Assembly: GCA_964016885.1 (NCBI GenBank)
Contig: OZ024742.1
Location: forward strand, 32,302,001-32,366,000
DNA: 64,000 bases
Reading direction: 5' to 3'
From: Eledone cirrhosa
Lineage: Eukaryota
The notes beneath the pieces were generated by a model. The model was not told the origin of the DNA. It made no database searches and was given only the letters and a program-made list of their open reading frames with translations. Below, one piece after another: positions 2,906 through 56,091 of the stretch (position 1 is the first letter of the stretch; each line of letters starts with the position of its first letter). The position numbers and the translations under genes are program-made.

Positions 2906-2914
2906 AATGAATAC

Positions 2915-4066: not shown

Positions 4067-4589
4067 CTACAAGAAGAAAAAAATAATTGTTTCTATTTTT
4101 GGCACAAGACCAGCAGTTACCCAGTGCATTACTGGTAATTTATTTTATCGACCCCGTAAGAGCCAATTAACTCTTCCATAACCACATTTCTAAGGAAATA
4201 CACTATTTCATTTAATTAATGAAGAATTTTGAGGTATTTACTAAAATTATTAATTATTTCAATAACATATGGTTCTTACATAGAATTATGTTGGAATATT
4301 TTAATTTAAATAGGAACCCTTAAAAATGGGTGGCTTTGTTTCATAAAACAAAAGCCAATTTTATCAACTCCAGTACTTGACTGGTGCATTATTTTACTGA
4401 CACCAGAAAGACAAAACGCAATGCTGACCTCAACGAGATTTAAACTCAGAATGTAAAGAACTGGAACAAAATACCACAAGGCATTTTGACTGTCACTCTA
4501 ATGATCCTGACAACCAACCATCCTGGTAAAAATGTTTAATAATAATGATTTCTAATTCAGAAACAAGGTCAGCAATTATTTAAGAGGTA

Positions 4590-5230: not shown

Positions 5231-5651
5231 TGGGCAAAGAAGTATCAATGCCTGGTTGGTATTTTATTTTATCAATCCTGGGAGATGAATAGCAAAGTTG
5301 ATCTCAGTAGGATTTCAACTCAGAACGTAGAGAGCTAGAACAAATACTAAGTGTCTTGCCCAACACTGATTCTACTGCTTCACTACCTTAATGATGGTTT
5401 CTAATTTAAGTGGGAAAAGTCAATCAAATTGACTCCAGTACTGGACTGGTATTTTACTGTCTGTGTGTGTGTGTATATGGTTGAAACATGTTTGCATGCT
5501 TCTACTGTGTGTTTGCACCATGTATATTTGCATGATTGCACAATAATGAAATTATTGTGTAAAGTGCTCAGGTGCACTACAACTCGCCAAAGGTGTATGT
5601 ATAGTACATAGAATAATACACAAATGTCAGGGAAGTACATGTGTGTATGTG

Positions 5652-8415: not shown

Positions 8416-8471
8416 TTTGTACCTTGATTCCAGTCTATGATTATGTGCAGGGGATGGCAGGTTGTTCTGAT

Positions 8472-9815: not shown

Positions 9816-10448
9816 ATAAATATGCTGCGCAAGTTAAATGAAACGTACTGTAGAAGGCAACTGTTTATTAACAGCGAAATAACGTTTTTTTTCCTGATAC
9901 TGCTTCTTTATAATAAACTTTCAATAATATTTTTCAAATTATTAACTTTCAGCTGCTAGTATATATATATATAATTAAAAGGTGTATGTGGGTTAGAAGC
10001 GAAGTTAATGTTCAGAAATATTTTACCAATGTACGTAAGATTAGCCGGTATAGTGTCTCACACGAAATAGTGTGGTTTCTTTTCACGTGTGTGTATATGC
10101 ATATGGTATATATCTGTATATAAATCTGTGTGTATATTGTTGTTTATATGTTTTGTGGAGTACTTACTGCGATCCCTAAGGGATGTAGTGATTTGTTTTT
10201 TTGTTTTTTCCCCCCCGTCCATGTCCACACGTGGTTTGTTGGCGAAAATCAAGTCAAATTATATATACTTCGTTAAGATAATTCTATCTTGAAACTGGTA
10301 CTAGTTGTCAGGGAACAGTCAAAGTAATTGTAATAATGAATATTGTAATCCATCTGACATGTGTTTAAAGGGCAGTTTTTGGTGAAAATATTATATTTTG
10401 TTTGGTCAAGACGTGGTCAAGCGACCTTCCTTGTCGCCATTTTGGCCG

Positions 10449-23100: not shown

Positions 23101-23612
23101 TGGACATGTGATGCGTATGAAGGATGACAGCTGCATAAAAAGGTGCAGAGCACTAGAAGTCGATGGAAACCACGGAGTGGGGAGACCCAAGATGACCTGG
23201 GATGAGGTGATAAAAGCCGACCTTACCCAATTACACCTCTCAAAGGCAATGACACACGACCGTGACCTCTGGCATCACGCAGTAATACAGAGTACCCGAC
23301 CTCCCATGGGTACAAGCTGAAGCATATAGACAATATCCCCCCACCGCAAGGTGGTCGTGGAGGTGCCACGGCAAAAAAGTATCCAGCCCACACTGTAAAG
23401 TGGACGTGTAGGCGCCACGAAAAAGCACCCAGCACTCACTGTAAATGAGGTTGGTGTTAGGAAGGGCATCCAGCTGTAGAAATCAAGCCAGATCAGTTCC
23501 TGTATGAGCAAGGCATGGTCAGCCGACCATACACTGCCCACAACAGGACAACCCGTCTAACCCATGCTAGCATGGAAGAACGGACGTAAAACGGTGATGA
23601 TGATGATGATGA
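20150..23612 (+). mobile_element. Full-length or nearly full-length RTE LINE, disrupted ORF
   Basis: APE (GTINVGSM, VQETRW, SAYAPQ, GDFNGH, IDFIL), RT (NYRGIKL, FVDLEKAFDRV, GVHQGSVLSP, LYADDL), C-terminal Cys cluster (WPCSVC..CPKC..VH..C..C..C), 3' UTR and (GAT)n tail; frameshift near 21580 and stops near 22408 and 22599. Confidence 0.95.
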
Positions 23613-24699: not shown

Positions 24700-27600
24700 T
24701 GAGAGATAATCTGCTGAGGGCCACAAATGACATTTGTGGCTGGAGCAAGGCCCCATGGAGGAGGGGAATGGCTTGGTGGTGGAACAGTAAGGTGGATGAG
24801 ACAATTAAGGACAAGAGACAAGCATGGAAAGAATGACAGAATCGGGAAAGCAGATAACTTTATCAAGAAGCTAGAAAACGAGTATACTTTGCAAGGAGAA
24901 AATTAAGCACGTTTTGCAACACGAGGACCAAAGACGGGAGATGTTCAGGGTTGTGAGGCAGTGTAACAAGGAAAATTGTGATGTTGTTGGGGAGAAGTGT
25001 ATCCAAGATGATAATGGCACACTTGCCCTCACTGACACTGAAAATAAAGTAGCTTGGAAGTGATATTATGGAAGATTATTGAACGAGGAGAATGCATGGA
25101 AGAAAGAAAGTGTCTCAACTGGACCCTACAGTGGGACTAGCCATACAAGTCAGCAGCAGTGTAGTAAGACAATTAAGGATATGAAGACAGGCAAAGCAGT
25201 TGGACATCAGGGATAGTTGCTGAAAGCATCTGGGATGGTGGGTCATACCTTAACCACCTGTACCATAAACCAAGTAATATAGAATAGTGTCATACCTAGT
25301 GACTGGTGTAGCAACAGCATCACCAACTGCTACAAGGGCAAAGGTGATGCAGAAGACATCAGAAATTATAGAGGGATCAAGTTGACAGACAAGGTCATAA
25401 AAGTTAGAGAAAAAGTTATTACAGAGCTGATTAGGGACTAAATTAACCTAGATGAGATCATCATCATCATCACCGTTTTACGTCCGTTCTTCCACGCTAG
25501 CATGGGTTAGACGGGTTGTCCTGTTGTGTGCAGTGTCTGGTCGGCTGACCATGCCTTGCTCATACAGGAACTGATCTGGCTTGATTTCTACAGCTGGATG
25601 CCCTTCCTAACACCAACCTCATTTACAGTGAGTGCTGGGTGCTTTTTCGTGGTGCCTACACGTCCACTTTACAGTGTGGGCTGGGTACTTTTTTGCCGTG
25701 GCACCTCCACGACCACCTTGCGGTGGGGGGGGTATGGGGGCATATTGTTTATATGCTTCAGCATGTACCCATGGGAGGTCGGGTACTCTGTATTACTGCG
25801 TGACGCCAGAAGTCACGGTCGTGTGTCATTGTCTTTGAGAGGTGTAGTTGGGTAAGGTCGGCTTTTATCACCTCATCCCAGGTCATCTTGGGTCTCCCCA
25901 CTCCGCGGTTTCCATCAACTTCTAGTGCTCTGCACCTTTTTATGCAGCTGTCATCCTTCATACGCATCACATGTCCATACCAGCGCAACCGCCTCTCCTG
26001 CACACAGCATTTGATTCCTCTTATGCTCAGTCTCTCTCTCAATTCATTTATGCTTTGTCGTTCACGTATATTACTGTTACACATCCATCGGAGCATGCAG
26101 GCTTCGTTTCTCTCTAATCTACGTAAGTCTTCCACCTTCAGCGCCCAGGTCTCACTACCATGCAACATCGCTGTTCGGATACACGCATCATACAGTCTGC
26201 CTTTCATTCTGAGGGAGAAGCCTTTTGCAGCTAGCAGTGGTAGTAGTTCCCTAAACTTCTTCCATCCCGTTCTTACCCTAATTATTGTACTTTCTGAACA
26301 CCCACCTCCGTTGCTAATTCGGTCACCTAGGTAGCAGAAGCTGTCTACTGTTTCTACAGGGCCCTCCCAGAGATTGGTGGTACTTGTTTCCTGTGGCTGT
26401 TTGCTGCTTGCTGTTTCAGCACAGCTGCTGCATGTGAATCCTACATTCTTAATTAAGCTTCCTGAGATCCCGCTACATCTCTTGTGTACCCATTGTTTGC
26501 ATTTGGGGCAGAGGATGGAGTTCCTACCTACACCTTTCCTACATACTGAGCAAGGCCATTTCCCTGAGGGGATCTGGGTTCTGTTTTCTCGTCTACTTAC
26601 AAGGACCTTAGTCTTTGTCATGTTGACTTTGAGACCCTTTCTTTCTAGTCCCTGCTTCCAGGTTTGGAATTTATTCTCTAGTTCTACCATAGATTCAGCT
26701 ATGAGTGCGAGGTCATCAGCATACAGGAGTTCCCATGGGCATCCGGTCTTAAACTTCTCCGTTATTGCCTGCAGGACTATGATGAACAGGAGAGGGCTAA
26801 GAACAGAGCCCTGGTGGACCCCAACCTGTACGCTAAATTCCTCGCTATACTCATTGCTAATCCTAACTTTGCTGACTGCTCCCCTATACATGGCTTGTAC
26901 CGCTTTCACAAGCCATTCATCTACTCCTAGTTTTCTAAGAGCCCACCAGATTACCGCACGTGGAACTCTGTCAAAGGCTTTCTCAAGGTCGACAAATGCC
27001 AAGTAGAGTGGCTTACTTTTAGCTAGGTACTTTTCCTGTAATTGCCTCACAAGGAAGAGGGCATCAGTGGTGCCTCTTCCTGGTACAAACCCAAATTGCA
27101 TCTCGTCTATATTCACCCGGTCCCTAATCAGCTGTGCTATAACTCTTTCTGTTACTTTCATGACCTGGTCCATCAACTTTATACCTCTATAGTTTCCTCT
27201 ATCTAGTGCATCGCCTTTACCTTTGTAGCAGTTGACAATGATGCTACTGCACCAATCTTTTGGTATGGCCCCTTCTAGTATTACCTGGTTAACGATACGT
27301 GTGGTTATAGTGTGACCTACAGACCCAGATGCCTTCAGCATCTCGGCAGCTATACCCGATGGACCGGTTGCCTTCCCCATCTTCATATCTTTGATTGCCT
27401 TACTTACTACGCTGCTGCTGACTTGTACTGCTGGTCCCTCTATAGGGTCTACTTGGGGAAGGGTCTCTTCTTCCCATGCATTCTCCTCATTTAGTAATCT
27501 ATCATAATGACTCTTCCATGCATCTTTCTTCTCAGCACTTGTGAGGGCAAGCTCACCTTTATCATTCCGGATACACTTCTCTCCAATGACATCACAACTC

Positions 27601-28745
27601 TCTCTGACACACTGCCTTGCAATCTTGAACACCTCCTGTTTCTGGTCCTCGCGTTGCAAAACATGCTTGAATTTTCTATCCTCTGCTTCCCTCCTAGCTA
27701 AGTATACTTGTAGCCTAGCTTCCCTCTTGGTCTCTATGTAATGAACCCTGCTCCCCCGTTCTTCCATTCTTTCCATGCCTGTCTCTTGGCCTTAACTGCT
27801 TCATCTATCTTATTGTTCCACCACCAAGTCACTCTCCTCCTGCTTGAGGTCTTACTCCAGCCACAGACCTCATCCGTCGCCTCTAGTAAATTATTTTTTA
27901 GGAACTCCCAGTTCTCTTCTACATTAAATGTCTATCTGTTCTTCTTTACTGTCGTAGGCGTTGAGTAAAATATCTTTAAATCTGTTACTGGTTGAGGGGA
28001 CTTTGTAGTTTGGATTTGTAGCATGTAAAAGTAACACTGATACCCTCTTCCTTGTGAGGCAATTGAAATTGTGCATAGACCCTCTACTTGACATTTGTTT
28101 ACCTAGAGAAAGTATTTGACTGAGTCCCCTGTTCCATAATCTGGTGGTCTCTTAGAAAACTAGGGTGGTACAAGTCATGTACAGAGAAGCATTCAGCAAG
28201 ATTAAAATTAATAATGCTTATAGTGAAGAATTTAGCATGCAAGTTGGGGTCCATCAGGAATCTGTTCTTAGCCCTCTCCTGTTTTTTTATCAGCCTGCAA
28301 GCTATAACGGAAGAGTTTAAGACTGGTTGCCCATGGGAACACTTATATGCCAATGATCTAACCATTATTAAAGAAGAAATTCCAGACCTGGAAGCAAAAG
28401 GTCTAAAAGTCAACTTGGCAAAAACTAAAGTAGAAAGAAAAACAGGGCTCTGATCCCTTCAGGGAAATGGCCTTGCTCAGTGTGCAGCAACGGAGTGGTT
28501 AGAAATTCCATCCTATCTTCCAAATGCAAACTACAAGTACACAAGATTTGCAGTGGGATCTCAAGCAGGCTAACAAAGAACATAGGTTTCATATGTAGTC
28601 AATGCACAGAAGCAGTAAACAGCAAGAAGCTTGGGATGAAGTGATAAAAGCTGACCTTGCACACTTAAAATCTCAAAGGAGCTGACACAAGATCAAGATC
28701 TCTGGTGTCATGCTGTACTGCAAAAGACCCTACCCCCGTGTGCAC
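24700..28745 (+). mobile_element. Older degenerate RTE LINE split by the young minus-strand copy (24700-25458 and 28005-28745)
   Basis: The two halves rejoin as ..CTAGATGAGAT|GTAGTTTGGATTTGTA.. (LDEM.FGFV), collinear with the plus-strand RTE. Confidence 0.85.
25459..28004 (-). mobile_element. Young 5'-truncated RTE LINE with intact RT ORF (25758-27776)
   Basis: 672-codon open frame nearly identical to the 20150 copy; (CAT)n tail at 25459-25471. Confidence 0.95.
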
Positions 28746-31064: not shown

Positions 31065-31715
31065 AAATTCATTTTTCCTTGCTAGCATGGGTTTGAGTTG
31101 TCCTGTTGTGAGCAATGCCAAGTCAGGTGACAATCCCATGCTCATACAAAACTGATTTTAGCTTGGTTTCTACAGTTGGATGCCTTTCCTAATGCCAGCT
31201 TCATTTACAGTGTGGGCTGGGTGCTTTTTGTCGTGTCACCATCACAACCACTTTACAGTGTGGGCTGGGTGTCTTTTGCTGTGTCACCATCACGACCACT
31301 TTACAGTGTGGGCTGGGTGCTTTATGCCGTGTCACCATCAGGACCACTTTACAGTGTGGGCTGGGTGCTTTATGCCGTGTCACCATCACAACCACTTTAC
31401 AGTGTGGGCTGGGTGCCTTTTGCTGTGTCACCATCACGACCACTTTACAGTGTGGGCTGGGTGCCTTTTGCAAAGTCGCCATCACGACCACTTTACAGTG
31501 TGGGCTGGGTGCCTTTTGCAATGTCGCCATCACGACCATTTTACAGTGTTGGCTGGGTGCCTTTACAGTGTGGGCTGGGTGCCTTTTGCAATGTCGCCAT
31601 CACGACCACTTTACAGTGTGGGCTGGAGACTTCCCTAGATGCATGCTTCAGCCTGTCCTCATGGGAGATGTATGGGAGGGTGAGGTGGTGTATACAATAT
31701 ATATGCTTCAGCTAA
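31065..31715 (-). repeat. RTE 3' UTR relic with a 48-bp minisatellite (~9 copies, 31203-31625)
   Basis: Unit CACTTTACAGTGTGGGCTGGGTGCCTTTTGCTGTGTCACCATCACGAC; both flanks match the RTE 3' UTR at 25470-25780. Confidence 0.88.
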
Positions 31716-38060: not shown

Positions 38061-38690
38061 ATTTGTTTTAAGAATTATGCTGCCTATAGAAGTAGATAAT
38101 AGCTCCTGGAACTTTTTCCACCCAATATGGTTTCACTTATGCCTTCCCAATACACACTACTGCCAAATAGTTTTCTGAAACTGTCTAACTTGACAGATAG
38201 ACAAATACCGAAACAGCTCTTGATAACATAAGAGATAGATAGATCGATACATGGATAAGAAGACATCTAGATGGAAATAGGAACAGAAATAAACAGCTAG
38301 AAATATAGACCAACCAGCTAGATCGGTGAACAGAGAGATAATTGCACAAGTTATAGAAATAGAGCAGAATAGACATCTGCATATATATATATATATAGTT
38401 AGATGGAAAGCTAGAGAGATAAACACAGAGATATACAGAACTAGATGGACAGGTAGACAGACATCTAAATGAACATGTCGAGTTAGATAGCAAAATAAAC
38501 AAGTTCAGAGAGATAGCTAGATGGACATGTAGAGAGACATAAATAGCTAGAGAGAAAGAAAGAGGTAGAAAGATACAGAGACACAGCTAGATGGACATGA
38601 GAGGTGTAGCTAGATGGAGAGAAATGGACAGGCAAAGAGAGAGACAAGTAGAGAGATAGACAGCTAGGTGGACAGGTAGAGAGAGAGATA

Positions 38691-39884
38691 AATTTCTTTA
38701 TTAGCCACAAGGGCACAAAAGATGGGGACAAATACAAATGGGGAGTTTACATAAAGGTATATGAAAATAAAACTTAATAAAATAAGATATGTTTCTTTTA
38801 TTTGCCACTAGGGCATCAAAAGTGGGACAAGTACAAAGGGGGGAGTTTACACAAAAAGGCGTCCTCAATAAGGAGGAGGCAATAACAAAATATAAAAATA
38901 AAATAAGATATAACAAAAAATAAAATTTATAACAAAATCCTCAATAGAGAGGAGGCGCCTTGGGGGGGTCGCACACACCCCCGAAAAAAGTGTGCAACCC
39001 TTTTCCTCAGGAGCACAGAGAGGGGGTGCTCCCTCGTTCCTTCCTCTTTTCCACCTACAGGCTTATGTAAAGAGAAGGCCCATTCACACGGGCCATTCTC
39101 GCCACTTTCACCCACCTTTCATAAAAACGACTGGGGTGCAGCACCTCTCTCTCCATCCTGATCCTTCTTCCGAAATGATATCGGAAGAAACGGACCAGTT
39201 GTTGGCCAGAGAGAAAGGTGCCTGACCTCAGTCCTTTCAGACGCGTCCACCATACAACCTCTTTCGCCATGGCTATTAAGCACAGAAACACCGCCTCTGC
39301 TTCATCTTTGAAGGGGGGAGGCGGCTTGATCATTACAATAGACTCGGTGGTCAACCGGATCGGTCCCACCCTTGACAGCAGTTGTTCGACATAGCCCCAC
39401 AGATCGGCTACGCCCGAGCAGTGTACCAATGCGTGTGCAACGGTTTCCTCGTCGCACACGCATATGGGACAGATCTTTTTGGCGGGGTCCCTACCCGGGT
39501 GCCCGTGTCTGTAGAGCCTTTCTCGAACGGGTAAAGCCCCTCGGTAGCACTGCCAGGTCAGGGACTTCTGGAAGTTGTCCATAGGTCCCGGGCTGAATGT
39601 CCTACCGAACAGGCTGGCCAGTTCGTCTTCCTCCATGTCTAGGGCTTCTCCGAGGGCGTCGTCGCACCTGCTGCGTACCAGCCCTCTATAGAATGTTGCG
39701 GTGGAGTCTCCACTGATAACCGGATCCGCCTGCCAGAGGGCGGTGAGCGCCTGGGCACACTCAGTGTGCCAGGCGCCCAGTTTTCTCGGTCTTTGCTTGA
39801 CCCAGGATTGCAGCTCGGTGAGTGAGACGAGTCTGGGAAAGGTTCGTCTCACAAACGAGGCCCACACCGGTTGTCCGGTGAGGA
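38691..39884 (-). mobile_element. Tx1/L1-group retrotransposon 3' fragment, copy 1, with an extra diverged 3' end at 38691-38789
   Basis: ORF 39055-39867 has SLTWQCYRGALPVRERL..CPIC..EETVAHALVHC (zf-RVT/CCHC end of L1/Tx1 ORF2), followed by a pyrimidine-rich 3' UTR and AATAAA; GC-rich relative to its surroundings. Confidence 0.88.
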
Positions 39885-42415
39885 AGAGATAGACAGCTAT
39901 GTGGACAAGTAGAGACAGAGATAGCTAGGTGGACAGGTAGAGAGATAGACAGCTCTGTGGACAAGTAGAGACAGAGATAGCTAGGTGGACAGGTAGAGAC
40001 AGAGATAGCTAGGTGGACAGGTAGAGAGAGAGATAGCTATGTGAACAGGTAGAGAGAGAGACAGCTGTCTCTCTCTACCTGTCCACCCAGCTATGTGGAC
40101 AGGTAGAGACAGAGAGACAGCTAGGTGGACAGGTAGAGACAGAGAGACAGCTAGGTGGACAGGTAGAGAGAGAGAGATAGCTAGGTGGACAGGTAGAGAG
40201 AGGGAGAGAGAGAGAGGTGGACAGGTAGAGAGAGAGACAGCTAGGTGGACAGGTAGAGAGAAAGAGACAGCTATGTGGACAGGTAGAAAGAGAGAGACAG
40301 CTATGTGGACAGGTAGAGGGAGAGAGACAGCTATGTGGACAGGTAGAGAGAGAGAGATAGCTAGGTGGACAGGTAGAGAGAGACAGCTAGGTGGACAGGT
40401 AGAGAGAGAGAGAGACAGCTAGGTGGACAGGTAGAGAGAGAGAGAGACAGCTAGGTGGACAGGTAGAGAGAGAGAGACAGCTAGGTGGACAGGTAGAGAG
40501 AGAGAGACAGCTAGGTGGACAGGTAGAGAGAGAGAGACAGCTAGGTGAACAGGGAGAGAGAGAGAGAGATAGCTAGGTGGACAGGTAGAGAGAGAGAGAT
40601 AGCTAGGTGGACAGGTAGAGAGAGAGAGACAGCTAGGTGGACAGGTAGAGAGAGAGACAGCTAAGTGGACAGGTAGAGAGAGTGACAGCTAAGTGGACAG
40701 GTAGAGAGAGTGACAGCTAAGTGGACAGGTAGAGAGAGTGACAGCTAAGTGGACAGGTAGGGAGAGAGAGAGACAGCTAGGTGGACAGGTAGAGAGAGAG
40801 AGACAGCTAGGGGGACAGGTAGAGAGAGAGAGAGATAGCTAGGTGGACAGGTAGAGAGAGAGAGAGACAGCTAGGTGGACAGGTAGAGAGAGAGAGAGAC
40901 AGCTAGGTGGACAGGTAGAGAGAGATAGGTGGACAGGTAGAGAAAGATAGACAGCTAGGTGGACAGGTAGAGAGAGAGAGACAGCTAGGTGGACAGGTAG
41001 AGAGAGAGAGACAGCTAGGTGGACAGGTAGAGAGAGAGAGAGACAGCTAGGTGGCCTGGTAGAGAGAGATAGCTAGGTGGACAGGTAGAGAGAGAGAGCT
41101 AGGTGGACAGGTAGAGAGAGAGAGACAGCTAGGTGGACAGGTAGAGAGAGAGAGACAGCTAGGTGGACAGGTAGAGAGAGAGACAGCTAGGTGGACAGGT
41201 AGAGAGAGAGAGACAGCTGTCTCTCTTTACCTGTCCACCTAGCTAGGTGGACAGGGAGAGAGAGTGATAGCTAGGTGGACAGGTAGAGAGAGAGAGATAG
41301 CTGTCTCTCTCTCTCTCTACCTGTCCACTTAGCTGTCTCTCTCTCTACATGTCCACCTAGCTAAGTGGACAGGTAGAGAGAGTGACAGCTAAGTGGACAG
41401 GTAGAGAGAGAGAGACAGCTAGGTGGACAGGTAGAGAGAGAGACAGCTAGGTGGACAGGTAGAGAGAGAGAGATAGCTAGGTGGACAGGTAGAGAGAGAG
41501 AGATAGCTAGGTGGACAGGTAGAGAGAGAGAGATAGCTAGGTGGACAGGTAGAGAGAGAGAGATAGCTAGGTGGACAGGTAGAGAAAGAGACAAAGGTGG
41601 ACAGGTAGAGAGAGAGAGACAGCTAGGTGGACAGGTAGAGAGAGAGAGACAGCTAGGTGAACAGGGAGAGAGAGAGAGAGAGATAGCTAGGTGGACAGGT
41701 AGAGAGAGAGAGATAGCTAGGTGGACAGGTAGAGAGAGAGAGACAGCTAGGTGGACAGGTAGAGAGAGAGATAGCTAGGTGGACAGGTAGAGAGAGAGAC
41801 AGCTAGGTGGACAGGTAGAGAGAGAGACAGCTAAGTGGACAGGTAGAGAGAGAGACAGCTAAGTGGACAGGTAGAGAGAGTGACAGCTAAGTGGACAGGT
41901 AGAGAGAGTGACAGCTAAGTGGACAGGTAGAGAGAGAGAGAGACAGCTAAGTGGACAGGTAGGGAGAGAGAGAGACAGCTAGGTGGACAGGTAGAGAGAG
42001 AGAGACAGCTAGGGGGACAGGTAGAGAGAGAGAGATAGCTAGGTGGACAGGTAGAGAGAGAGAGAGAGAGACAGCTAGGTGGACAGGTAGAGAGAGATAG
42101 GTGGACAGGTAGAGAGAGAGAGAGAGAGCTAGGTGGACAGGTAGAAAAAAATAGACAGCTAGGTGGACAGGTAGAGAGAGAGAGACAGCTAGGTGGACAG
42201 GTAGAGAGAGAGATAGCTAGGTGGACAGGTAGAGAGAGAGAGACAGCTAGGTGGACAGGTAGAGAGAGAGAGAGACAGCTAGGTGGACTGGTAGAGAGAG
42301 ATAGCTAGGTGGACAGGTAGAGAGAGAGAGACAGCTAGGTGGACAGGTAGAGAGAGAGATAGCTAGGTGGACAGGTAGAGAGAGACAGCTAGGTGGACAG
42401 GTAGAGAGAGAGATA

Positions 42416-43279
42416 AGTTTCTTTTATTTGCCACTAGGGCATCAAAAGTGGGACAAGTACAAAGGGGGGAGTTTACACAAAAAGGCGTCCTCAATAAGGA
42501 GGAGGCAATAACAAAATATAAAAATAAAATAAGATATAACAAAAATAAAATTTTTAACAAAATCCTCAATAGAGAGGAGGCGCCTTGGGGGGTCGCACAC
42601 ACCCCCGAAAAAAGTGTGCAACCCTTTTCCTCAGGAGCACAGAGAGGGGGTGCTCCCTCGTTCCTTCCTCTTTTCCACCTACAGGCTTATGTAAAGAGAA
42701 GGCCCATTCACACGGGCCATTCTCGCCACTTTCACCCACCTTTCATAAAAACGACTGGGGTGCAGCACCTATCTCTCCATCCTGATCCTTCTTCCGAAAT
42801 GATATCGGAAGAAACGGACCAGTTGTTGGCCAGAGAGAAAGGTGCCTGACCTCAGTCCTTTCAGACGCGTCCACCATACAACCTCTTTCGCCATGGCTAT
42901 TACGCACAGAAACACCGCCTCTGCTTCATCTTTGAAGGGGGGAGGCGACTTGATCATTACAATAGACTCGGTGGTCAACCGGATCGGTCCCACCCTTGAC
43001 AGCAGTTGTTCGACATAGCCCCACAGATCGGCTACGCCCGAGCAGTGTACCAATGCGTGTGCAACGGTTTCCTCGTCGCACACGCATCTGGGACAGATCT
43101 TTTTGGCGGGGTCCCTACCCGGGCGCCCGTATCTGTAGAGCCTTTCTCGAACGGGTAAAGCCCCTCGGTAGCACTGCCAGGCCAGGGACTTCTGGAAGTT
43201 GTCCATAGGTCCCGGGCTGAATGTCCTACCGAACAGGCTGGCCAGTTCGTCCTCCTCCATGTCTAGGGCTTCTCCGAGG
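42416..43279 (-). mobile_element. Tx1/L1-group retrotransposon 3' fragment, copy 2, 11-bp TSD
   Basis: Near-identical to 38790-39654 but more 5'-truncated; AGAGAGAGATA at 42405-42415 and 43280-43290. Confidence 0.9.
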
Positions 43280-46200
43280 AGAGAGAGATAGCTAGGTGGA
43301 CAGGTAGAGAGAGAGATAGCTAGGTGGACAGGTAGAGAGAGTGAGACAGCTAGGTGGACAGGTAGAGAGAGAGAGACAGCTAGGTGGACAGGTAGAGAGA
43401 GAGAGACAGCTGTCTCTCTTTACCTGTCCACCTAGCTAGGTGGACAGGGAGAGAGAGTGATAGCTAGGTGGACAGGTAGAGAGAGAGAGATAGCTGTCTC
43501 TCTCTCTCTCTACCTGTCCACTTAGCTAGGTGGACATGTAGAGAGAGAGACAGCTAAGTGGACAGGTAGAGAGAGTGACAGCTAAGTGGACAGGTAGAGA
43601 GAGAGAGACAGCTAGGTGGACAGGTAGAGAGAGAGACAGCTAGGTGGACAGGTAGAGAGAGAGATAGCTAGGTGGACAGGTAGAGAGAGAGAGATAGCTA
43701 GGTGGACAGGTAGAGAGAGAGACAGCTAGGTGGACAGGTAGAGAGAGACAGCTAGGTGGACAGGTAGAGAGAGAGAGACAGCTGTCTCTCTTTACCTGTC
43801 CACCTAGTTAGGTGGAGAGGTAGAGAGAGTGATAGCTAGGTGGACAGGTAGAGAGAGAGAGATAGCTAGGTGGACAGGTAGAGAGATAGAGACAGCTAAG
43901 TGGACAGGTAGAGAGAGAGAGACAGCTAGGTGGACAGGTAGAGAGATAGAGACAGCTAGGTGGACATGTAGAGAGAGAGACAGCTAAGTGGACAGGTAGA
44001 GAGACAGCTAGGTGGACAGGTAGAGAGAGAGACAGCTAGGTGGACAGGTAGAGAGAGACAGCTAGGTGAACAGGTAGAGAGAGAGAGATAGCTATGTGGA
44101 CAGATAGATAGAGAGAGAGACAGCTAGGTGGACAGGTAGAGAGAGAGAGAGAGACAGCTAGGTGGACAGGTAGAGAGAGAGAGAGAGACAGCTAGGTGGA
44201 CAGGTAGAGAGAGAGAGAGAGACAGCTAGGTGGACAGGTAGAGAGACAGCTAGGTGGACATGTAGAGAGAGAGAAAGATAGCTAGGTGGACAGTTAGAGA
44301 GAGAGAAAGATAGCTAGGTGGACAGTTAGAGAGAGAGACAGATAGGTGGACAGGTAGAGAGACAGACAGCTAGGTGGACAGGTAGAGAGAGAGAGACAGC
44401 TAGGTGGACAGGTAGAGAGAGAGACAGCTAGGGGGACAGGTAGAGAGAGAGAGATAGCTAGGTGGACAGGTAGAGAGAGAGAGAGACAGCTAGATGGACA
44501 GGTAGAGAGAGATAGGTGGACAGGTAGAGAGAGAGAGAGAGCTAGGTGGACAGGTAGAGAAAGATAGACAGCTAGGTGGACAGGTAGAGAGAGAGAGACA
44601 GCTAGGTGGACAGGTAGAGAGAGACAGCTAGGTGGACAGGTAGAGAGAGAGATAGCTAGGTGGACAGGTAGAGAGAGTGAGACAGCTAGGTGGACAGGTA
44701 GAGAGAGAGAGACAGCTAGGTGGACAGAGAGAGACAGCTGTCTCTCTTTACCTGTCCACCTAGCTAGGTGGACAGGGAGAGAGAGTGATAGCTAGGTGGA
44801 CAGGTAGAGAGAGAGAGATAGCTGTCTCTCTCTCTCTCTACCTGTCCACTTAGCTGTCTCTCTCTCTACATGTCCACCTAGCTAAGTGGACAGGTAGAGA
44901 GAGTGACAGCTAAGTGGACAGGTAGAGAGAGAGACAGCTAGGTGGACAGGTAGAGAGAGAGACAGCTAGGTGGACAGGTAGAGAGAGAGACAGCTAGGTG
45001 GACAGGTAGAGAGAGACAGCTAGGTGGACAGGTAGAGAGAGAGAGACAGCTGTCTCTCTTTACCTGTCCACCTAGTTAGGTGGACAGGTAGAGAGAGTGA
45101 TAGCTAGGTGGACAGGTAGAGAGAGAGAGATAGCTAGGTGGACAGGTAGAGAGATAGAGACAGCTAAGTGGACAGGTAGAGAGATAGAGACAGATAAGTG
45201 GACAGGTAGAGAGATAGAGACAGCTAGGTGGACAGGTAGAGAGAGAAAGACAGCTAGGTGGACAGGTAGAGAGATAGAGACAGCTAGGTGGACATGTAGA
45301 GAGAGAGACAGCTAAGTGGACAGGTAGAGAGAGAGACAGCTAAGTGGACAGGTAGAGAGACAGCTAGGTGGACAGGTAGAGAGAGAGAGATAGCTATGTG
45401 GACAGATAGATAGAGAGAGAGACAGCTAGGTGGACAGGTAGAGAGAGAGAGAGAGAGACAGCTAGGTGGACAGGTAGAGAGAGAGAGAGAGACAGCTAGG
45501 TGGACAGGTAGAGAGAGAGAGAGAGACAGCTAGGTGGACAGGTAGAGAGACAGCTAGGTGGACATGTAGAGAGAGAGAAAGATAGCTAGGTGGACAGTTA
45601 GAGAGAGAGACAGATAGGTGGACAGGTAGAGAGAGAGACAGCTAGGTGGACAGGTAGAGAGAGAGAGACAGCTAGGTGGACAGGTAGAGAGAGAGACAGC
45701 TAGGTGGACAGGTAGAGAGAGAGAGAGACAGTTAGGTGGACAGGTATAGAGAGAGACAGCTAGGTGGACAGGTAGAGAGAGAGAGACAGCTAGGTGGACA
45801 GGTAGAGAGATACAGCTAAGAGGGCAGGTAGAGAGAGAGAGAGAGATAGCTAGGTGGACAGGTAGAGAGACAGCTAAGTGGACAGGTAGAGAGACCGCTA
45901 GGTGGAAGGTAGAGAGACAGCTAGGTGGACAGGTAGAGAGACAGCTAGGTGGACAGGTAGAGAGACAGCTAGGTGGACAGGTAGAGAGACAACTAAGTGG
46001 ACAGGTACAGAGACAGCTAGGTGGACAGGTAGAGAGACAGCTAGGTGGACAGGTAGAGAGACAGCTAAGTGGACAGGTAGAGAGACAGCTAAGTGGACAG
46101 GTAGAGAGACAGCTAAGTGGACAGGTAGAGAGACAGCTAAGTGGACAGGTAGAGAGACAGCTAGGTGGACAGGTAGAGAGACAGCTAGGTGGACAGGTAG

Positions 46201-49200
46201 AGAGACAGCTAGGTGGACAGGTAGAGAGACAGCTAAGTGGACAGGTAGAGAGACAACTAGGTGGACAGGTACAGAGACAGCGAGGTGGACAGGTAGAGAG
46301 ACAGCTAGGTGGACAGGTAGAGAGACAGCTAAGTGGACAGGTAGAGAGACAGCTAAGTGGACAGGTAGAGACAGCTAAGTGGACAGGTAGAGAGACAGCT
46401 AGGTGGACAGGTAGAGAGACAGCTAGGTGGACAGGTAGAGAGACAGCTAAGTGGACAGGTAGAGAGACAGCTAAGTGGACAGGTAGAGAGACAGCTAGGT
46501 GGACAGGTAGAGAGACAGCTAAGTGGACAGGTAGAGAGACAGCTAGGTGGACAGGTAGAGAGACAGCTAAGTGGACAGGTAGAGAGACAGCTAGGTGGAC
46601 AGGTAGAGAGACATCTAAGTGGACAGGTATAGAGACAGCTAAGTGGACAGGTAGAGAGACAGCTAGGTGGACAGGTAGAGAGAGAGAGACAGCTAGGTGG
46701 ACAGGTAGAGAGAGACAGCTAGGTGGACAGGTAGAGAGAGACAGCTAGGTGGACAGGTATGGAGAGAGACAGCTAGGTGGACAGGTATGGAGAGAGACAG
46801 CTAGATGGACAGGTAGAGAGAGAGACAGCTAGGTGGACATGTAGAGAGAGAGAGACAGCTAGATGGACAGGTAGAGAGAGACAACTAGGTGCACAGGTAG
46901 AGAGAGAGATAGCTAGGTGGACAGGTAGAGAGAGAGAGAGACAGCTAGGTGGACAGGTAGAGAGAGAGACAGCTAGGTGGACAGGTAGAGAGAGAGACAG
47001 CTAGGTAGACAGGTAGAGAGAGAGATAGGTGGACAGGTAGAGAGAGAGAGAGACAGCTAGGTGGACAGGTAGAGAGAGACAGCTAGGTGGACAGGTAGAG
47101 AGAGACAGCTAGGTGGACAGGTATGGAGAGAGACAGCTAGGTGGACAGGTATGGAGAGAGACAGCTAGATGGACAGGTAGAGAGAGAGACAGCTAGGTGG
47201 ACATGTAGAGAGAGAGAGACAGCTAGATGGACAGGTAGAGAGAGACAACTAGGTGCACAGGTAGAGAGAGAGATAGCTAGGTGGACAGGTAGAGAGAGAG
47301 AGAGACAGCTAGGTGGACAGGTAGAGAGAGAGACAGCTAGGTGGACAGGTAGAGAGAGACAGCTAGGTGGACATGTAGAGAGAGAGAGAGATTGATAGGT
47401 GGACATGTAGAGAGAGAGAGAGCTAGGTGGACAGGTAGAGAGAGAGAGAGACAGCTAGGTGGACAGGTAGAGAGAGAGAGAGACAGCTAGGTGGACAGGT
47501 AGAGAGAGAGAGACAGCTAGGTGTACAGGTAGAGAGAGAGAGAGCTAGGTGGACAGATAGATAGAGAGAGAGACAGCTAGGTGGACAGGTAGAGAGAGAG
47601 AGAGAGAGACAGCTAGGTGGACAGGTAGAGAGAGAGAGAGAGACAGCTAGGTGGACAGGTAGAGAGAGAGAGAGAGACAGCTAGGTGGACAGGTAGAGAG
47701 AGAGAGAGAGACAGCTAGGTGGACAGGTAGAGAGACAGCTAGGTGGACATGTAGAGAGAGAGAAAGATAGCTAGGTGGACAGTTAGAGAGAGAGACAGAT
47801 AGGTGGACAGGTAGAGAGAGAGACAGCTAGGTGGACAGGTAGAGAGAGAGAGACAGCTAGGTGGACAGGTAGAGAGAGAGACAGCTAGGTGGACAGGTAG
47901 AGAGAGAGAGAGACAGTTAGGTGGACAGGTATAGAGAGAGACAGCTAGGTGGACAGGTAGAGAGAGAGAGACAGCTAGGTGGACAGGTAGAGAGATACAG
48001 CTAAGAGGGCAGGTAGAGAGAGAGAGAGAGACAGCTAGGTGGACAGGTAGAGAGACAGCTAAGTGGACAGGTAGAGAGACCGCTAGGTGGAAGGTAGAGA
48101 GACAGCTAGGTGGACAGGTAGAGAGACAGCTAGGTGGACAGGTAGAGAGACAGCTAGGTGGACAGGTAGAGAGACAACTAAGTGGACAGGTACAGAGACA
48201 GCTAGGTGGACAGGTAGAGAGACAGCTAGGTGGACAGGTAGAGAGACAGCTAAGTGGACAGGTAGAGAGACAGCTAAGTGGACAGGTAGAGAGACAGCTA
48301 AGTGGACAGGTAGAGAGACAGCTAGGTGGACAGGTAGAGAGACAGCTAGGTGGACAGGTAGAGAGACAGCTAGGTGGACAGGTAGAGAGACAGCTAAGTG
48401 GACAGGTAGAGAGACAACTAGGTGGACAGGTACAGAGACAGCGAGGTGGACAGGTAGAGAGACAGCTAGGTGGACAGGTAGAGAGACAGCTAAGTGGACA
48501 GGTAGAGAGACAGCTAAGTGGACAGGTAGAGACAGCTAAGTGGACAGGTAGAGAGACAGCTAGGTGGACAGGTAGAGAGACAGCTAGGTGGACAGGTAGA
48601 GAGACAGCTAAGTGGACAGGTAGAGAGACAGCTAAGTGGACAGGTAGAGAGACAGCTAGGTGGACAGGTAGAGAGACAGCTAAGTGGACAGGTAGAGAGA
48701 CAGCTAGGTGGACAGGTAGAGAGACAGCTAAGTGGACAGGTAGAGAGACAGCTAGGTGGACAGGTAGAGAGACATCTAAGTGGACAGGTATAGAGACAGC
48801 TAAGTGGACAGGTAGAGAGACAGCTAGGTGGACAGGTAGAGAGAGAGAGACAGCTAGGTGGACAGGTAGAGAGAGACAGCTAGGTGGACAGGTAGAGAGA
48901 GACAGCTAGGTGGACAGGTATGGAGAGAGACAGCTAGGTGGACAGGTATGGAGAGAGACAGCTAGATGGACAGGTAGAGAGAGAGACAGCTAGGTGGACA
49001 TGTAGAGAGAGAGAGACAGCTAGATGGACAGGTAGAGAGAGACAACTAGGTGCACAGGTAGAGAGAGAGATAGCTAGGTGGACAGGTAGAGAGAGAGAGA
49101 GACAGCTAGGTGGACAGGTAGAGAGAGAGACAGCTAGGTGGACAGGTAGAGAGAGAGACAGCTAGGTAGACAGGTAGAGAGAGAGATAGGTGGACAGGTA

Positions 49201-52200
49201 GAGAGAGAGAGAGACAGCTAGGTGGACAGGTAGAGAGAGACAGCTAGGTGGACAGGTAGAGAGAGACAGCTAGGTGGACAGGTATGGAGAGAGACAGCTA
49301 GGTGGACAGGTATGGAGAGAGACAGCTAGATGGACAGGTAGAGAGAGAGACAGCTAGGTGGACATGTAGAGAGAGAGAGACAGCTAGATGGACAGGTAGA
49401 GAGAGACAACTAGGTGCACAGGTAGAGAGAGAGATAGCTAGGTGGACAGGTAGAGAGAGAGAGAGACAGCTAGGTGGACAGGTAGAGAGAGAGACAGCTA
49501 GGTGGACAGGTAGAGAGAGACAGCTAGGTGGACATGTAGAGAGAGAGAGAGATTGATAGGTGGACATGTAGAGAGAGAGAGAGCTAGGTGGACAGGTAGA
49601 GAGAGAGAGAGACAGCTAGGTGGACAGGTAGAGAGAGAGAGACAGCTAGGTGGACAGGTAGAGAGAGAGAGACAGCTAGGTGTACAGGTAGAGAGAGAGA
49701 GAGCTAGGTGGACAGGTATAGAGAGAGACAGCTAGGTGGACAGGTAGAGAGAGAGAGAGACAGCTACGTGGACAGGTAGAGAGATACAGCTAAGTGGGCA
49801 GGTAGAGAGAGAGACAGCTAGGTGGACAGGTAGAGAGACAGCTAGTAAGAGAGGTAGAGAGACAGCTAGATGGACAGGTAAAGAGACAGCTAGGTGGACA
49901 GGTAGAGAGACAGCTAAGTGGACAGGTAGAGAGACAGCTAAGTGGACAGGTAGAGAGACAGCTAGGTGGACAGGTAGAGAGACCGCTAGGTGGACAGGTA
50001 GAGAGACAGCTAAGTGGACAGGTAGAGAGACAGCTAAGTGGACAGGTAGAGAGACAGCTAAGTGGACAGGTAGAGAGACAGCTAAGTGGACAGGTAGAGA
50101 GACAGCTAAGTGGACAGGTAGAGAGACAGCTAGGTGGACAGGTGAAGAGACAGCTAGGTGGACAGGTAGAGAGACAGCTAAGTGGGCAGGTAGAGAGACA
50201 GCTAGGTGGACAGGTAGAGACAGCTAGAGACAGCTAAGTGGACAGGTAGAGAGACAGCTAGGTGGACAGGTAGAGAGACAGCTAAGTGGACAGGTAGAGA
50301 GACAGCTAAGTGGACAGGTAGAGAGACAGCTAGGTGGACAGGTAGAGAGACAGCTAGGTGGACAGGTAGAGAGACAGCTAAGTGGACAGGTAGAGACAGC
50401 TAAGTGGACAGGTAGAGAGACAGCTAAGTGGACAGGTAGAGAGACAGCTAAGTGGACAGGTAGAGACAGCTAAGTGGACAGGTAGAGAGACAGCTAAGTG
50501 GACAGGTAGAGAGACAGCTAAGTGGACAGGTAGAGAAAGGTAGAGAGACAGCTAAGTGGACAGGTAGAGAAAGGTAGAGAGACAGCTAAGTGGACAGGTA
50601 GGTGGGCAGGTAGAGAGACAGCTAAGTGGGCAGGTAGAGAGACAGCTAAGTGGACAGATAGAGAGACAGCTAAGTGGACAGGTAGAGAGACAGCTAAGTG
50701 GACAGGTAGAGAGACAGCTAGAGAGACAGCATGGTGGACAGGTAGAGAGACAGCTAGGTGGACAGGTAGAGAGACAGCTAGGTGGACAGGTAGAGAGACA
50801 GCTAAGTGGACCGGTAGAGAGACAGTTAGGTGGACAGGTAGAGAGACAGCTAGATGGACAGGTAGAGAGACAGCTCAGTGGACAGGTAGAGAGACAGCTA
50901 AATGGACAGGTAGAGAGACAGCTAAGTGGACAGATAGAGAGACAGCTAAGTGGACAGGTAGAGAGACAGCTAAGTGGGCAGGTAGAGAGACAGCTAAGTG
51001 GACAGATAGAGAGACAGCTAAGTGGACAGGTAGAGAGACAGCTAGAGAGACAGCATGGTGGACAGGTAGAGAGACAGCTAGGTGGACAGGTAGAGAGACA
51101 GCTAGGTGGACAGGTAGAGAGACAGCTAAGTGGACCGGTAGAGAGACAGTTAGGTGGACAGGTAGAGAGACAGCTAGATGGACAGGTAGACAGACAGCTA
51201 AGTGGACAGGTAGAGAGGCAGCTAAGTGGACAGGTAGAGAGACAGCTAAGTGGACAGGTAGAGAGACAGCTAAGTGGACAGGTAGAGAGACAGCTAAGTG
51301 GACAGGTAGAGAGACAGCTAAGTGGACAGGTAGAGAGACAGCTAGGTGGGCAGATAGAGAGACAGCTAAGTGGACAGGTAGAGAGACAGCTAGAGAGACA
51401 GCTAGGTGGACAGGTAGAGAGACAGCTAGGTGGACAGGTAGAGAGACAGCTAGAGAGACAGCTAGGTGGACAGGTAGAGAGACAGCTAGGTGGACAGGTA
51501 GAGAGACAGCTAGAGAGACAGCTAGGTGGACAGGTAGAGAGACAGCTAGGTGGACAGGTAGAGAGACAGCTAGGTGGACAGGTAGAGAGACAGCTAGGTG
51601 GGCAGGTAGAGAGACAGCTGGGTGGACAGGTAGAGAGACAGCTAGGTGGGCAGGTAGAGAGACAGCTAGGTGGGCAGGTAGAGAGACAGCTAAGTGGACA
51701 GGTAAAGAGACAGCTAGGTGGACAGGTAGAGAGACAGCTAAGTGGACAGGTAGAGACAGCTAAGTGGGCAGATAGAGAGACAGCTAGGTGGACAGGTAGA
51801 GAGACAGCTAAGTGGACAGGTAGAGAGACAGCTAAGTGGACAGTTAGAGAGACAGCTAGAGAGACAGCTAGGTGGACAGGTAGAGAGACAGCTAGGTGGA
51901 CAGGTAGAGAGACAGCTAGAGAGACAGGTAGGTGGACAGGTAGAGAGACAGCTAGGTGGACAGGTAGAGAGACAGCTAGAGAGACAGCTGGGTGGACAGG
52001 TAGAGAGACAGCTAGGTGGACAGGTAGAGAGACAGCTAGGTGGACAGGTAGAGAGACAGCTAGGTGGGCAGGTAGAGAGACAGCTAAGTGGACAGGTAGA
52101 GAGACAGCTAAGTGGACAGGTAGAGAGACAGCTAGGTGGGCAGGTAGAGAGACAGCTAAGTGGACAGGTAGAGAGACAGCTAGGTGGGCAGGTAGAGAGA

Positions 52201-55200
52201 CAGCTAAGTGGACAGGTAGAGAGACAGCTAAGTGGACAGGTATAGAGACAGCTAAGTGGACAGGTAGAGAGACAGCTAGGTGTACAGGTAGAGAGACAGC
52301 TAGGTGGACAGGTAGAGAGACAGCTAGGTGGACAGGTAGAGAGACAGCTAGGTGGACAGGTAGAGAGACAGCTAGGTGGGCAGGTAGAGAGACAGCTAAG
52401 TGGACAGGTAGAGAGACAGCTAAGTGGACAGGTAGAGAGACAGCTAAGTGGACAGGTAGAGAGACAGCTAGGTGGACAGGTAGAGAGACAGCTAAGTGGA
52501 CAGGTAGAGAGACAGCTAGGTGGACAGGTAGAGAGACAGCTCGGTGGACAGGTAGAGAGACAGCTAGGTGGACAGGTAGAGAGAGAGAGACAGCTAGGTG
52601 GACAGGTAGAGAGAGAGAGACAGCTAGGTGGACAGGTAGAGAGAGAGAGACAGCTAGGTGGAGAGGTAGAGAGATACAGCTAAGTGGGCAGGTAGAGAGA
52701 GAGACAGCTAGGTGGACAGGTAGAGAGACAGCTAGGTGGACAGGTAGAGAGACAGCTAGGTGGACAGGTAGAGAGACAGCTAGGTGGACAGGTAGAGAGA
52801 CAGCTAGGTGGACAGGTAGAGAGACAGCTAGGTGGACAGGTAGAGAGACAGCTAGGTGGACAGGTAGAGAGACAGCTAGGTGGACAGGTAGAGAGACAGC
52901 TAGGTGGACCGGTAGAGATAGGTAGAGAGACAGCTAAGTGGACAGGTAGAGAGACAGCTAAGTGGACAGGTAGAGAGACAGTTAGGTGGACAGGTAGAGA
53001 GACAGCTAGATGGACAGGTAGAGAGACAGCTAAACGGATAGGTAGAGAGACAGCTAGGTGGACACGTAGAGAGACAGCTAAGTGGACAGGTAGAGAAAGG
53101 TAGAGAGACAGCTAAGTGGACAGGTAGAGAGACAGCTAAGTGGACAGGTAGAGAGACAGCTAGGTGGGCAGATAGAGAGACAGCTAAGTGGACAGGTAGA
53201 GAGACAGCTAAGTGGACAGGTAGAGAGACAGCTAAGTGGACAGGTAGAGAGACAGCTAAGTGGACAGGTATAGAGACAGCTAAGTGGACAGGTAGAGAGA
53301 CAGCTAGGTGGACAGGTAGAGAGACAGCTAGGTGGACAGGTAGAGAGACAGCTAAGTGGACAGGTAGCGAGACAGCTAGGTGGACAGGTAGAGAGACAGC
53401 TAAGTGGACAGGTAGAGAGACAGCTAAGTGGACAGGTAGAGAGACAGCTAAGTGGACAGGTAGAGAAAGGTAGAGAGACAGCTAGGTGGACAGGTAGAGA
53501 GACAGCTAAGTGGACAGGTAGAGAGACATCTAGCAGGACAGGTAGAGAGACAGCTAGGTGGACAGGTAGAGAGACAGCTAGGTGGACAGGTAGAGAGACA
53601 GCTAAGTGGACAGGTAGAGAGACAGCTAAGTGGACAGGTAGAGAGACAGCTAGGTGGACAGGTAGAGAGACAGCTAGGTGGACAGGTAGAGAGACAGCTA
53701 GGTGGACAGCTAGAGAGACAGCTAAGTGGACAGGTAGAGAGACAGCTAGGTGGACAGGTAGAGAGACAGCTAAGTGGGCAGATAGAGAGACAGCTAGGTG
53801 GACAGGTAGAGAGACAGCTAAGTGGACAGGTAGAGAGACAGCTAGGTGGACAGGTAGAGAGACAGCTAAGTGGACAGGTAGAGAGACAGCTAGGTGGACA
53901 GGTAGAGAGACAGCTAAGTGGGCAGATAGCGAGACAGCTAGGTGGACAGGTAGAGAGACAGCTAAGTGGACAGGTAGAGAGACAGCTAGGTGGACAGGTA
54001 GAGAGACAGCTAAGTGGACAGGTAGAGAGACAGCTAGGTGGACAGGTAGAGAGACAGCTAAGTGGACAGGTAGAGAGACAGCTAGGTGGACAGGTAGAGA
54101 GACAGCTAAGTGGACAGGTAGAGAGACAGCTAAGTGGACAGGTAGAGAGACAGCTAAGTGGACAGGTAGAGAGACAGCTAAGTGGACAGATAGAGAGACA
54201 GCTAGGTGGACAGGTAGAGAGACAGCTAAGTGGACAGGTAGAGAGACAGCTAGGTGGACAGGTAGAGAGACAGCTAAGTGGGCAGATAGAGAGACAGCTA
54301 GGTGGACAGGTAGAGAGACAGCTAAGTGGACAGGTAGAGAGACAGCTAAGTGGACAGGTAGAGAGACAGCTAAGTGGACAGGTAGAGAGACAGCTAAGTG
54401 GACAGATAGAGAGACAGCTAGGTGGACAGGTAGAGAGACAGCTAAGTGGACAGGTAGAGAGACAGCTAGGTGGACAGGTAGAGAGACAGCTGAGTGGACA
54501 GGTAGAGAGACAGCTAGGTGGACAGGTAGAGAGACAGCTAAGTGGACAGGTAGAGAGACAGCTAGGTGGACAGGTAGAGAGACAGCTAAGTGGACAGGTA
54601 GAGAGACAGCTAGGTGGACAGGTAGAGAGACAGCTAAGTGGGCAGATAGAGAGACAGCTAGGTGGACAGGTAGAGAGACAGCTAAGTGGACAGGTAGAGA
54701 GACAGCTAGGTGGACAGGTAGAGAGACAGCTAGCTGGACAGGTAGAGAGACAGCTAAGTGGACAGGTAGAGAGACAGCTAGGTGGACAGGTAGAGAGACA
54801 GCTAAGTGGGCAGATAGAGAGACAGCTAGGTGGACAGCTAAGTGGACAGGTAGAGAGACAGCTAGGTGGACAGGTAGAGAGACAGCTAAGTGGACAGGTA
54901 GAGAGACAGCTAGGTGGACAGGTAGAGAGACAGCTAAGTGGGCAGATAGAGAGACAGCTAGGTGGACAGGTAGAGAGACAGCTAAGTGGACAGGTAGAGA
55001 GACAGCTAGGTGGACAGGTAGAGAGACAGCTAAGTGGACAGGTAGAGAGACAGCTAGGTGGACAGGTAGAGAGACAGCTAAGTGGACAGGTAGAGAGACA
55101 GCTAGGTGGGCAGATAGAGAGACAGCTAGGTGGACAGGTAGAGAGACAGCTAAGTGGACAGGTAGAGAGACAGCTAGGTGGACAGGTAGAGAGACAGCTA

Positions 55201-56091
55201 AGTGGACAGGTAGAGAGACAGCTAGGTGGACAGGTAGAGAGACAGCTAAGTGGACAGGTAGAGAGACAGCTAGGTGGACAGGTAGAGAGACAGCTAAGTG
55301 GACAGGTAGAGAGACAGCTAGGTGGACAGGTAGAGAGACAGCTAAGTGGACAGGTAGAGAGACAGCTAAGTGGACAGGTAGAGAGACAGCTAGGTGGACA
55401 GATAGAGAGACAGCTAGGTGGACAGGTAGAGAAAGGTAGAGAGACAGCTAAGTGGACAGGTAGAGAAAGGTAGAGAGACAGCTAAGTGGACAGGTAGAGA
55501 GACAGCTAAGTGGACAGATAGAGAGACAGCTAGGTGGACAGGTAGAGAGACAGCTAAGTGGACAGGTAGAGAGACAGCTAGGTGGACAGGTAGAGAGACA
55601 GCTAAGTGGACAGGTAGAGAAAGGTAGAGAGACAGCTAAGTGGACAGGTGGAGAGACAGCTAGGTGGACAGGTAGAGAGACAGCTAAGTGGACAGGTAGA
55701 GAGACAGCTAGGTGGACAGGTAGAGAGACAGCTAAGTGGACAGGTAGAGAGACAGCTAAGTGGACAGGTAGAGAGACAGCTAAGTGGACAGGTAGAGAGA
55801 CAGTAAGAGAGGTAGCTAAGCGGATAGGTAGAGAAAGGCACAGACAGACATGGAGAAATAGACAGCTGTAAAGATAACTATATTGATGTGTAAAGATATA
55901 GTTATAGAAACAGGTAGAAAATGTTTGACAGCTATATGGTTCGTTAGGTATACAGGTAAAGAGACGCTACTAGATGCGATACAGACAGATGTACAAATAT
56001 AATGGCTATGTGGTCAGACAGACCCGTAGTTTAACAGCCTGACAGATTGAAAGGCAAAATACTTCCTATATGTGTGCGTGTGTGTGTGTAT

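Follow-up and report, generated by a model that had tools for sequence, protein, structure and literature searches.

The retrotransposon remnants in and beside a purine-rich satellite of the octopod Eledone cirrhosa are very probably 5′-truncated copies of a young L1/Tx1-type long interspersed nuclear element (LINE), here called family A, and of a sister, family B. Copies of both families end at TAT(C/A)T, likely as a consequence of targeting to (TATC)n, which reads (GATA)n on the opposite strand, and the satellite was likely struck through the resemblance of its AGATA motif to that target. The remnants lie in a stretch of 64,000 nucleotides (contig OZ024742.1, positions 32,302,001 to 32,366,000), which is analysed at full length as the window and belongs to contig C3 of a 3.0-Gb genome; loci and contigs elsewhere carry L- and C-numbers. 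An earlier note on the window had proposed a Kibi-like family that inserts at TATCTCTC or in (TC)n and uses the satellite as its landing pad. The evidence obtained here retains the sequence-preferring L1/Tx1-type LINE, replaces the target and reduces the satellite to what is likely a minor side target.

The 3′ junctions of family A carry the argument. The last 29 nucleotides of the element occur exactly at 1091 places in the genome, and (A/T)TAT (WTAT) follows 1041 of them, leaving at most 50 ends without it. With the slightly more permissive 28-nucleotide anchor used for hexamer counts, WTATCTA follows 837 ends and WTATCTC follows 15, and TATCTCTC is thus a minor site; the 3′ flanks that the earlier note would have had as TATCTC or (TC)n are mostly TATCTA. 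The preference does not arise from availability, because (TC)n tracts are about sixfold commoner than (TATC)n tracts (105,480 starts of (TC)10 versus 17,144 of (TATC)5 genome-wide). In twenty 10-kb samples of arbitrary DNA, TATCTA was counted 219 times, TATATA 4798 times and TATCTC 431 times, with 310 of the last coming from one satellite locus and 121 from elsewhere; per available site, TATCTA is used about 30 to 110 times above TATCTC. The sister family behaves alike, with TATCTA at the ends of 23 of 29 other copies and TATCTC at one. A closer survey of flanks covered the first 76 places listed for contig C1 apart from three (which read TATATA, TATATA and TATCTC): in these 73 copies, 51 of the 3′ flanks start with TATCTA, 12 start with TATATA, and 43 contain three or more TATC units. 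Family A exceeds the share of more than 20% same-type flanks by which PMC4494074 recognises specificity. The genome-wide TAT/TATC bias is far beyond chance, and family A likely targets (TATC)n/(GATA)n and, as second choice, (TA)n, not the (TC)n of Kibi.

Adjacent repeats of this kind could alternatively be made by the element itself, TATC units being a 3′ tail generated by slippage and insertion being merely loosely AT-biased. Such a tail would agree with the 13 of 63 truncated C1 copies whose 3′ flank alone carries (TATC)n, and with the rarity of (TATC)n in arbitrary DNA (one tract of at least 16 bases in 200 kb) when compared with its frequent occurrence beside elements. Yet where both flanks of the truncated copies were classifiable (27 of 63), they agree in 25 cases (20 TATC/TATC and five TA/TA; Fisher p = 4e-4), the (TA)n copies lack TATC at the 3′ junction, and the one-sided pattern appears likewise among (TA)n copies (4 of 10). 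At sites outside microsatellites, duplications of 9-18 bp start at TAT or one base earlier, with no units added. A polymorphic family A insertion (L255, G000:C1:81755994-81762794, insert at 1903-6501) provides direct evidence on the state before insertion. A contig in runs X1 and X2, which are one sample of an organism that also carries the window's unique flank, skips 4612 bases, equal to 4599 of element and 13 of duplication, with 0 differences across 527 flanking bases. Since the empty allele contains the target, the letters of the target and of its 13-bp duplication preceded the insertion, and the comparison of the two alleles reveals no added tail. An origin of the repeat as a tail is accordingly considered very unlikely.

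Several observations weigh against a simple (TATC)n-targeting interpretation. The target is loose, in that TATATA is found at 14 of the first 76 C1 ends, and the L255 empty allele itself is a TATAT site outside any (TATC)n tract. At least one flank matches neither repeat in 36 of the 63 truncated copies, and in 13 of these 36 only the 3′ flank holds (TATC)n; later insertions, deletions and inversions account for some of the odd flanks, and RNA-templated addition of TATC might still account for one-sided ones. Several copies, for example L021, L056 and L091, lack a duplication. Two insertion sites within 17 kb in the window are furthermore far above the mean TATCTC rate, and from this excess a contribution of context beyond the hexamer, through dense strand-biased arrays and local clustering, is deduced. 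In counting loci, L258 and L259 represent a single insertion that was duplicated, and the same may hold for the L290 pair.

The features of the window relevant to the insertions are as follows.

~38430-38690: degenerate outlier of the satellite, apart from the main array.
38686..38690, minus strand: target motif TATCT (AGATA on the plus strand) at the 3′ junction of c0, in a satellite-type monomer detached from the main array.
38691..38785, minus strand: c0, ~95 bp from the 3′ end of sister family B, 5′-truncated and devoid of coding sequence.
38785..38789, minus strand: TATCT between the 3′ end of c1 and c0; upstream of the c0 start, family B usually has other letters here.
38790..39886, minus strand: c1, a 5′-truncated family A copy of ~1.1 kb, with the last 279 codons of open reading frame (ORF) 2 as an open frame and the 3′ untranslated region.
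39885..39891, minus strand: TATCTCT where the 5′ end of c1 meets the satellite, the outer duplication (5-7 bp) of the c1+c0 pair.
39885..55800, plus strand: purine-rich satellite with a 24-30-bp unit, GCTAGGTGGACAGGT(AG)nA[C/T]A, ~590 units.
42405..42415, plus strand: left target-site duplication of c2, 11-12 bp.
42416..43279, minus strand: c2, a 5′-truncated family A copy of 864 bp, with the last 199 codons of ORF2 including one stop; terminal base T.
43280..43290, plus strand: right target-site duplication of c2.

As the earlier note had described, three minus-strand 3′ ends (38691, 38790 and 42416) lie one base from AGATA, at 38686-38690, 38785-38789 and 42411-42415, and two of them, 38691 and 42416, share the satellite register, coming after GGACAGGT(AG)nATA. 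The exact duplication around c2 is equally real: AGAGAGAGATA, plus one shared G, flanks the copy on both sides, and excision of c2 with one duplicate restores a whole monomer. The end at 38691, which had been assigned to the same family, belongs to family B. It is 83% alike to family A over 66 bases; most other family B copies are ~74-84% alike to family A further upstream, and other copies are up to 97% alike to c0. The satellite is contacted by c1 through its 5′ end only, where the proposed AGAGATA boundary is present, and the 3′ end abuts c0 via TATCT. The array consequently holds two insertion sites and not three, c2 and c0 alone being joined to the satellite by their 3′ ends. The terminal base of c1 is A, and a 3-base microhomology blurs its 5′ end. 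On the AGATAG variant of the monomer, found at 41 of 493 monomer ends across the array and at 34 of the 121 ends of the left part, the chance of finding two of two sites is p ~0.007 for the whole array and ~0.08 for the left part; taken alone, the coincidence is weak evidence.

Independent insertion of c1 and c2, proposed earlier from their coding differences (LTWQ/LAWQ, CPIC/CPRC and CLIA/CVIA, all confirmed), is upheld by an alignment of 72 copies across the c2 span. That c2 might be a segmental duplicate of c1 is suggested by their 98.7% identity over 865 columns, the same strand, the separation of 2.5 kb and the duplication-prone array. The two copies nevertheless differ by 10 substitutions with zero shared derived states; c2 has three private substitutions relative to 21 mutually identical copies elsewhere, and c1 clusters with L071 and L121 (support 96/91). 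Their terminal bases and both of their junctions are also unlike. With no derived states in common, different nearest copies and different junctions, the duplicate origin is excluded, or at most next to impossible.

The origin of the c1+c0 pair admits more than one account. A single event, in which the reverse transcriptase (RT) copied 95 bases of family B RNA and then switched to family A RNA, is a tentative possibility: TATCTCT bounds the pair on both outer sides, and two separate events would need 5-base duplications each, below the 9-18 bases seen elsewhere. Against it, copies frequently stack at TATC beside older ones (18 of 73), and family B pieces beginning at about the same point after TATC are also present at L128 and L139. 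The exact A-to-B junction pattern occurs at 2 places genome-wide; because these carry different downstream letters, the pair is not a spreading A-B chimera, and that candidate was rejected.

It remains to weigh the satellite as the landing pad of a family that targets TATCTCTC or (TC)n. Both insertion sites of the array are in the AGAGATA register, six of the 15 TATCTC insertions appear by eye to lie in tandem minisatellites, and a 24-bp AGATAG minisatellite on C12 (L299-L300, G000:C12:20570000-20589999) is broken by a pair of structurally unlike family A copies separated by 2.7 kb, one 5′-truncated at 3.8 kb and the other retaining its 5′ end with a 3.7-kb internal deletion. These points are outweighed by the 15 TATCTC versus 837 TATCTA ends and by the at most 50 of 1091 ends without WTAT, which cap pure (TC)n use below 5%. 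The AGATA-type monomer pattern is furthermore confined to the window (all 29 matches of a genome-wide pattern search), only c2 among the 15 TATCTC ends is inside the window array, and no element is present in the 12.5 kb of array that follow c2 on the right. We consider the landing pad with its TATCTCTC/(TC)n target extremely improbable. The window array holds roughly one in every 1000 family A ends, which is not the distribution of a satellite-specific LINE. A weak version of the idea survives, in which AGATA-containing purine-rich minisatellites serve as secondary targets. Because other minisatellites are hit and copies cluster generally, the window array is not special, and dense AGATA-bearing arrays of this type are likely secondary targets that may be struck twice. 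Clustering is evident from a related 3′ end at most 250 bases upstream in those 18 of 73 copies, against one such motif per 200 kb of background, and from C1 copy gaps below 6 kb (4 of 99 versus 0.2 expected). In the insertion-bearing left part of the window array (38430-45400), the AGATA variant is concentrated (34 of 41, the rest being in 45400-55800). As a separate case, six copies at L010-L015 (G000:C12:17.06-17.46 Mb) share a common 3′ flank at a spacing of ~60-155 kb, a tandem segmental duplication of one insertion.

Recovery of full-length copies of family A, which the earlier note had called for, yielded elements of 5.7-5.8 kb. From the best 40 DNA matches, 31 were extended to longer stretches, four were taken unextended and five, repeats of one duplicated C12 locus, were excluded. 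The copy L042 encodes an ORF1 of 618 amino acids with a CCHC knuckle and an ORF2 of 1145 amino acids with an apurinic/apyrimidinic (AP) endonuclease (PF03372 at 33-227) and an RT (PF00078 at 512-755). The best solved relative of ORF2 is human L1 ORF2p (E 5e-48; R2 at 3e-18), with which the columns of the catalytic residues (N, E, GDxN, D and SDH) are aligned. By its AP endonuclease and RT, separate ORF1, 5′ truncation and target-site duplication, the element is an L1-group AP-endonuclease (APE) LINE; the L1/Tx1-type placement draws on analogy in architecture and target preference. The family comprises more than 1000 copies that are near 99% alike. On C1, 63 of 73 copies are 5′-truncated and 10 are full length. 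Both frames are open in 12 of 23 full-length copies, a proportion biased upward since 13 of the 23 were drawn from among the best matches. Family A has neither poly(A) nor a 3′ tail of its own, and its terminal 85 bases show no better folding than shuffled sequences (z -0.38), leaving a 3′ RNA hairpin unsupported. Two distinct 5′ heads occur on one family A 3′ body (L042, L048), with ORF1 of 616-620 or 593-595 amino acids, which may reflect promoter swap or recombination between subfamilies.

Among named proteins, the closest in the RT is from Argonauta hians (67%), in agreement with the molluscan origin that had been surmised. The element clusters with the Argonauta protein (100/99) and with unnamed ENA proteins in a 29-row RT tree that had no named Tx1 rows; plant L1s fall elsewhere, and turtle and teleost rows have no resolved link to it. 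None of the proteins returned by protein searches, the cluster look-up, Atlas or NCBIfam bore the name Tx1, Kibi or Koshi. Atlas gave a lead (score 0.90) to ZCCHC3 domains for ORF1, and no tie between a ZCCHC3-like ORF1 and Tx1 was found in the literature. Distant relatives at 80 metagenome loci are ~22-37% alike, and none of the 80 has three TATC units; they are too distant for a test of target conservation. Parts of c2 are present in at least 20 listed runs under 17 organism codes, and no RNA run is among the listed holders. Runs X4-X7 contain element pieces 98-100% alike at low depth and lack the window's unique flank. Relative to X1, the depth of shared high-copy repeats in X4-X6 is reduced 15- to 10,000-fold as well, and the absent flank is for this reason attributed to low coverage or trace DNA. 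The pieces may represent trace DNA, close relatives or transfer; horizontal transfer was set aside as a candidate, the evidence pointing neither way.

Insertion may be envisaged as target-primed reverse transcription. The endonuclease would nick the GATA strand after TAGATA, and the freed 3′ end would prime reverse transcription starting at the end of the RNA, probably aided by 1-3 bases of pairing between RNA and primer. A second cut 9-18 bases further would yield the duplication. Because each insertion leaves a target on both sides, head-to-tail stacks would follow. As a variant within this explanation, the main source of specificity could be base pairing between the nicked strand and a read-through RNA end, which would bring UAUC along from the donor flank, with an endonuclease that is only loosely selective. 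Consistent with that, TATC repeats precede every full-length copy seen and follow most of them, poly(A) is absent, and at L023, L051 and L296 the duplicated target starts ATCT with an element-side T ahead. Target-like RNA ends boost accurate priming in SART1Bm and R1Bm (PMC7265360), and the endonuclease hairpin loop of family A aligns without gaps to that of the promiscuous human L1, not to the eleven-residue loop of Tx1L (PMC1950540). On the other hand, 1041 of 1091 ends show a base-exact junction, even at (TA)n where pairing beyond three bases is mismatched, and the Tx1L endonuclease by itself nicks nearly only its own target (PMC1950540). Pairing as the main source of specificity is judged somewhat unlikely. 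Bolder, and less probable still, is the idea of an octopod LINE radiation that aims at (GATA)n through a loose endonuclease combined with a target-carrying RNA end and lengthens GATA tracts as it does so; GATA tracts bred by target duplication would then be a self-made, programmable landing pad.

Among known systems, Kibi on (TC)n and Koshi on (TTC)n are Tx1 families of teleosts (PMC4494074, PMC3812793). Family A resembles them as an APE-type LINE that inserts into a microsatellite with a pyrimidine-rich strand, and differs in using (TATC)n, with (TA)n second, and shunning (TC)n though it is six times commoner; the (TC)n insertion by which Kibi is recognised is not what family A does. Crocodilian Tx1 elements (Tx1-1_Crp, Tx1-5_Crp, Tx1-6_Crp, Tx1-1_Gav and Tx1-2/3/5/8_AMi) use (TTCC)n/(TTTC)n (PMC4494074). 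They share with families A and B the situation of sister families with a common tetranucleotide target, above the 20% threshold for specificity, but the repeat unit is different, the comparison being one of descriptions and not of sequences. Tx1L of Xenopus targets one site in the DNA transposon Tx1D (PMC4494074, PMC1950540); the base-precise 3′ junction and the APE endonuclease are in common, whereas family A is inserted at more than 1000 loci, at a motif that is short and loose, and has a hairpin loop of L1 length. In Octopus vulgaris, 13 recently active L1-Tx1 families with 421 insertions have been described (PMC13282606), which are likewise young L1-Tx1 LINEs in an octopod genome; the word 'target' is absent from the main text of that source. 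The microsatellite targets of LINEs listed in the available text of PMC3812793 are ACAY, AC, TC, TTC and TAA, with GATA not listed, and the portions of PMC3747384, PMC8869645, PMC9004415 and PMC5753468 at hand contain nothing on a GATA/TATC target. Further targets, satellites among them, are named in the tree figure of PMC4494074. In the literature covered, no LINE targeting GATA/TATC was found; subscription journals and Repbase, outside this scope, could already record one.

What is described here is probably a new target, (GATA)n, for a known strategy of microsatellite targeting, and probably a new host group. The (GATA)n unit is thereby added to those of microsatellite-targeting APE LINEs, whose targeting mechanism was called not well understood in the review PMC3812793. 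The family is young, with open-frame copies and at least one polymorphic insertion, and its more than 1000 natural junctions constitute a ranked target list that can be compared with an enzyme assay. The satellite itself carries little weight in this respect, being a single locus and a weak secondary target.

In the remainder of the window, no element pieces other than c0, c1 and c2 were found, and no host gene was seen among frames longer than 130 amino acids. The X1 contig at the c0/c1 site ends at 38683 and is uninformative as to an empty allele there. Long ORFs at 20190-23317 (plus), 25761-27791 (minus), 63330-63998 (plus), 5655-9833 (minus) and 107-589 (plus) have the look of what we take to be RTE-type and CR1/L2-type LINEs and a helicase fragment, and two of them give a weak tblastn match to RT. 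A 48-bp minisatellite at 31204-31626 comprises 7.5 copies (92%), and several of its phases contain open frames. Within the satellite, short inverted monomers are noted by eye at 40066-40090, 41217-41245, 41303-41362, 43390-43415, 43495-43525 and 43785-43808, turning at an AGCT palindrome, and the block that starts at ~41217 recurs starting at ~43389.

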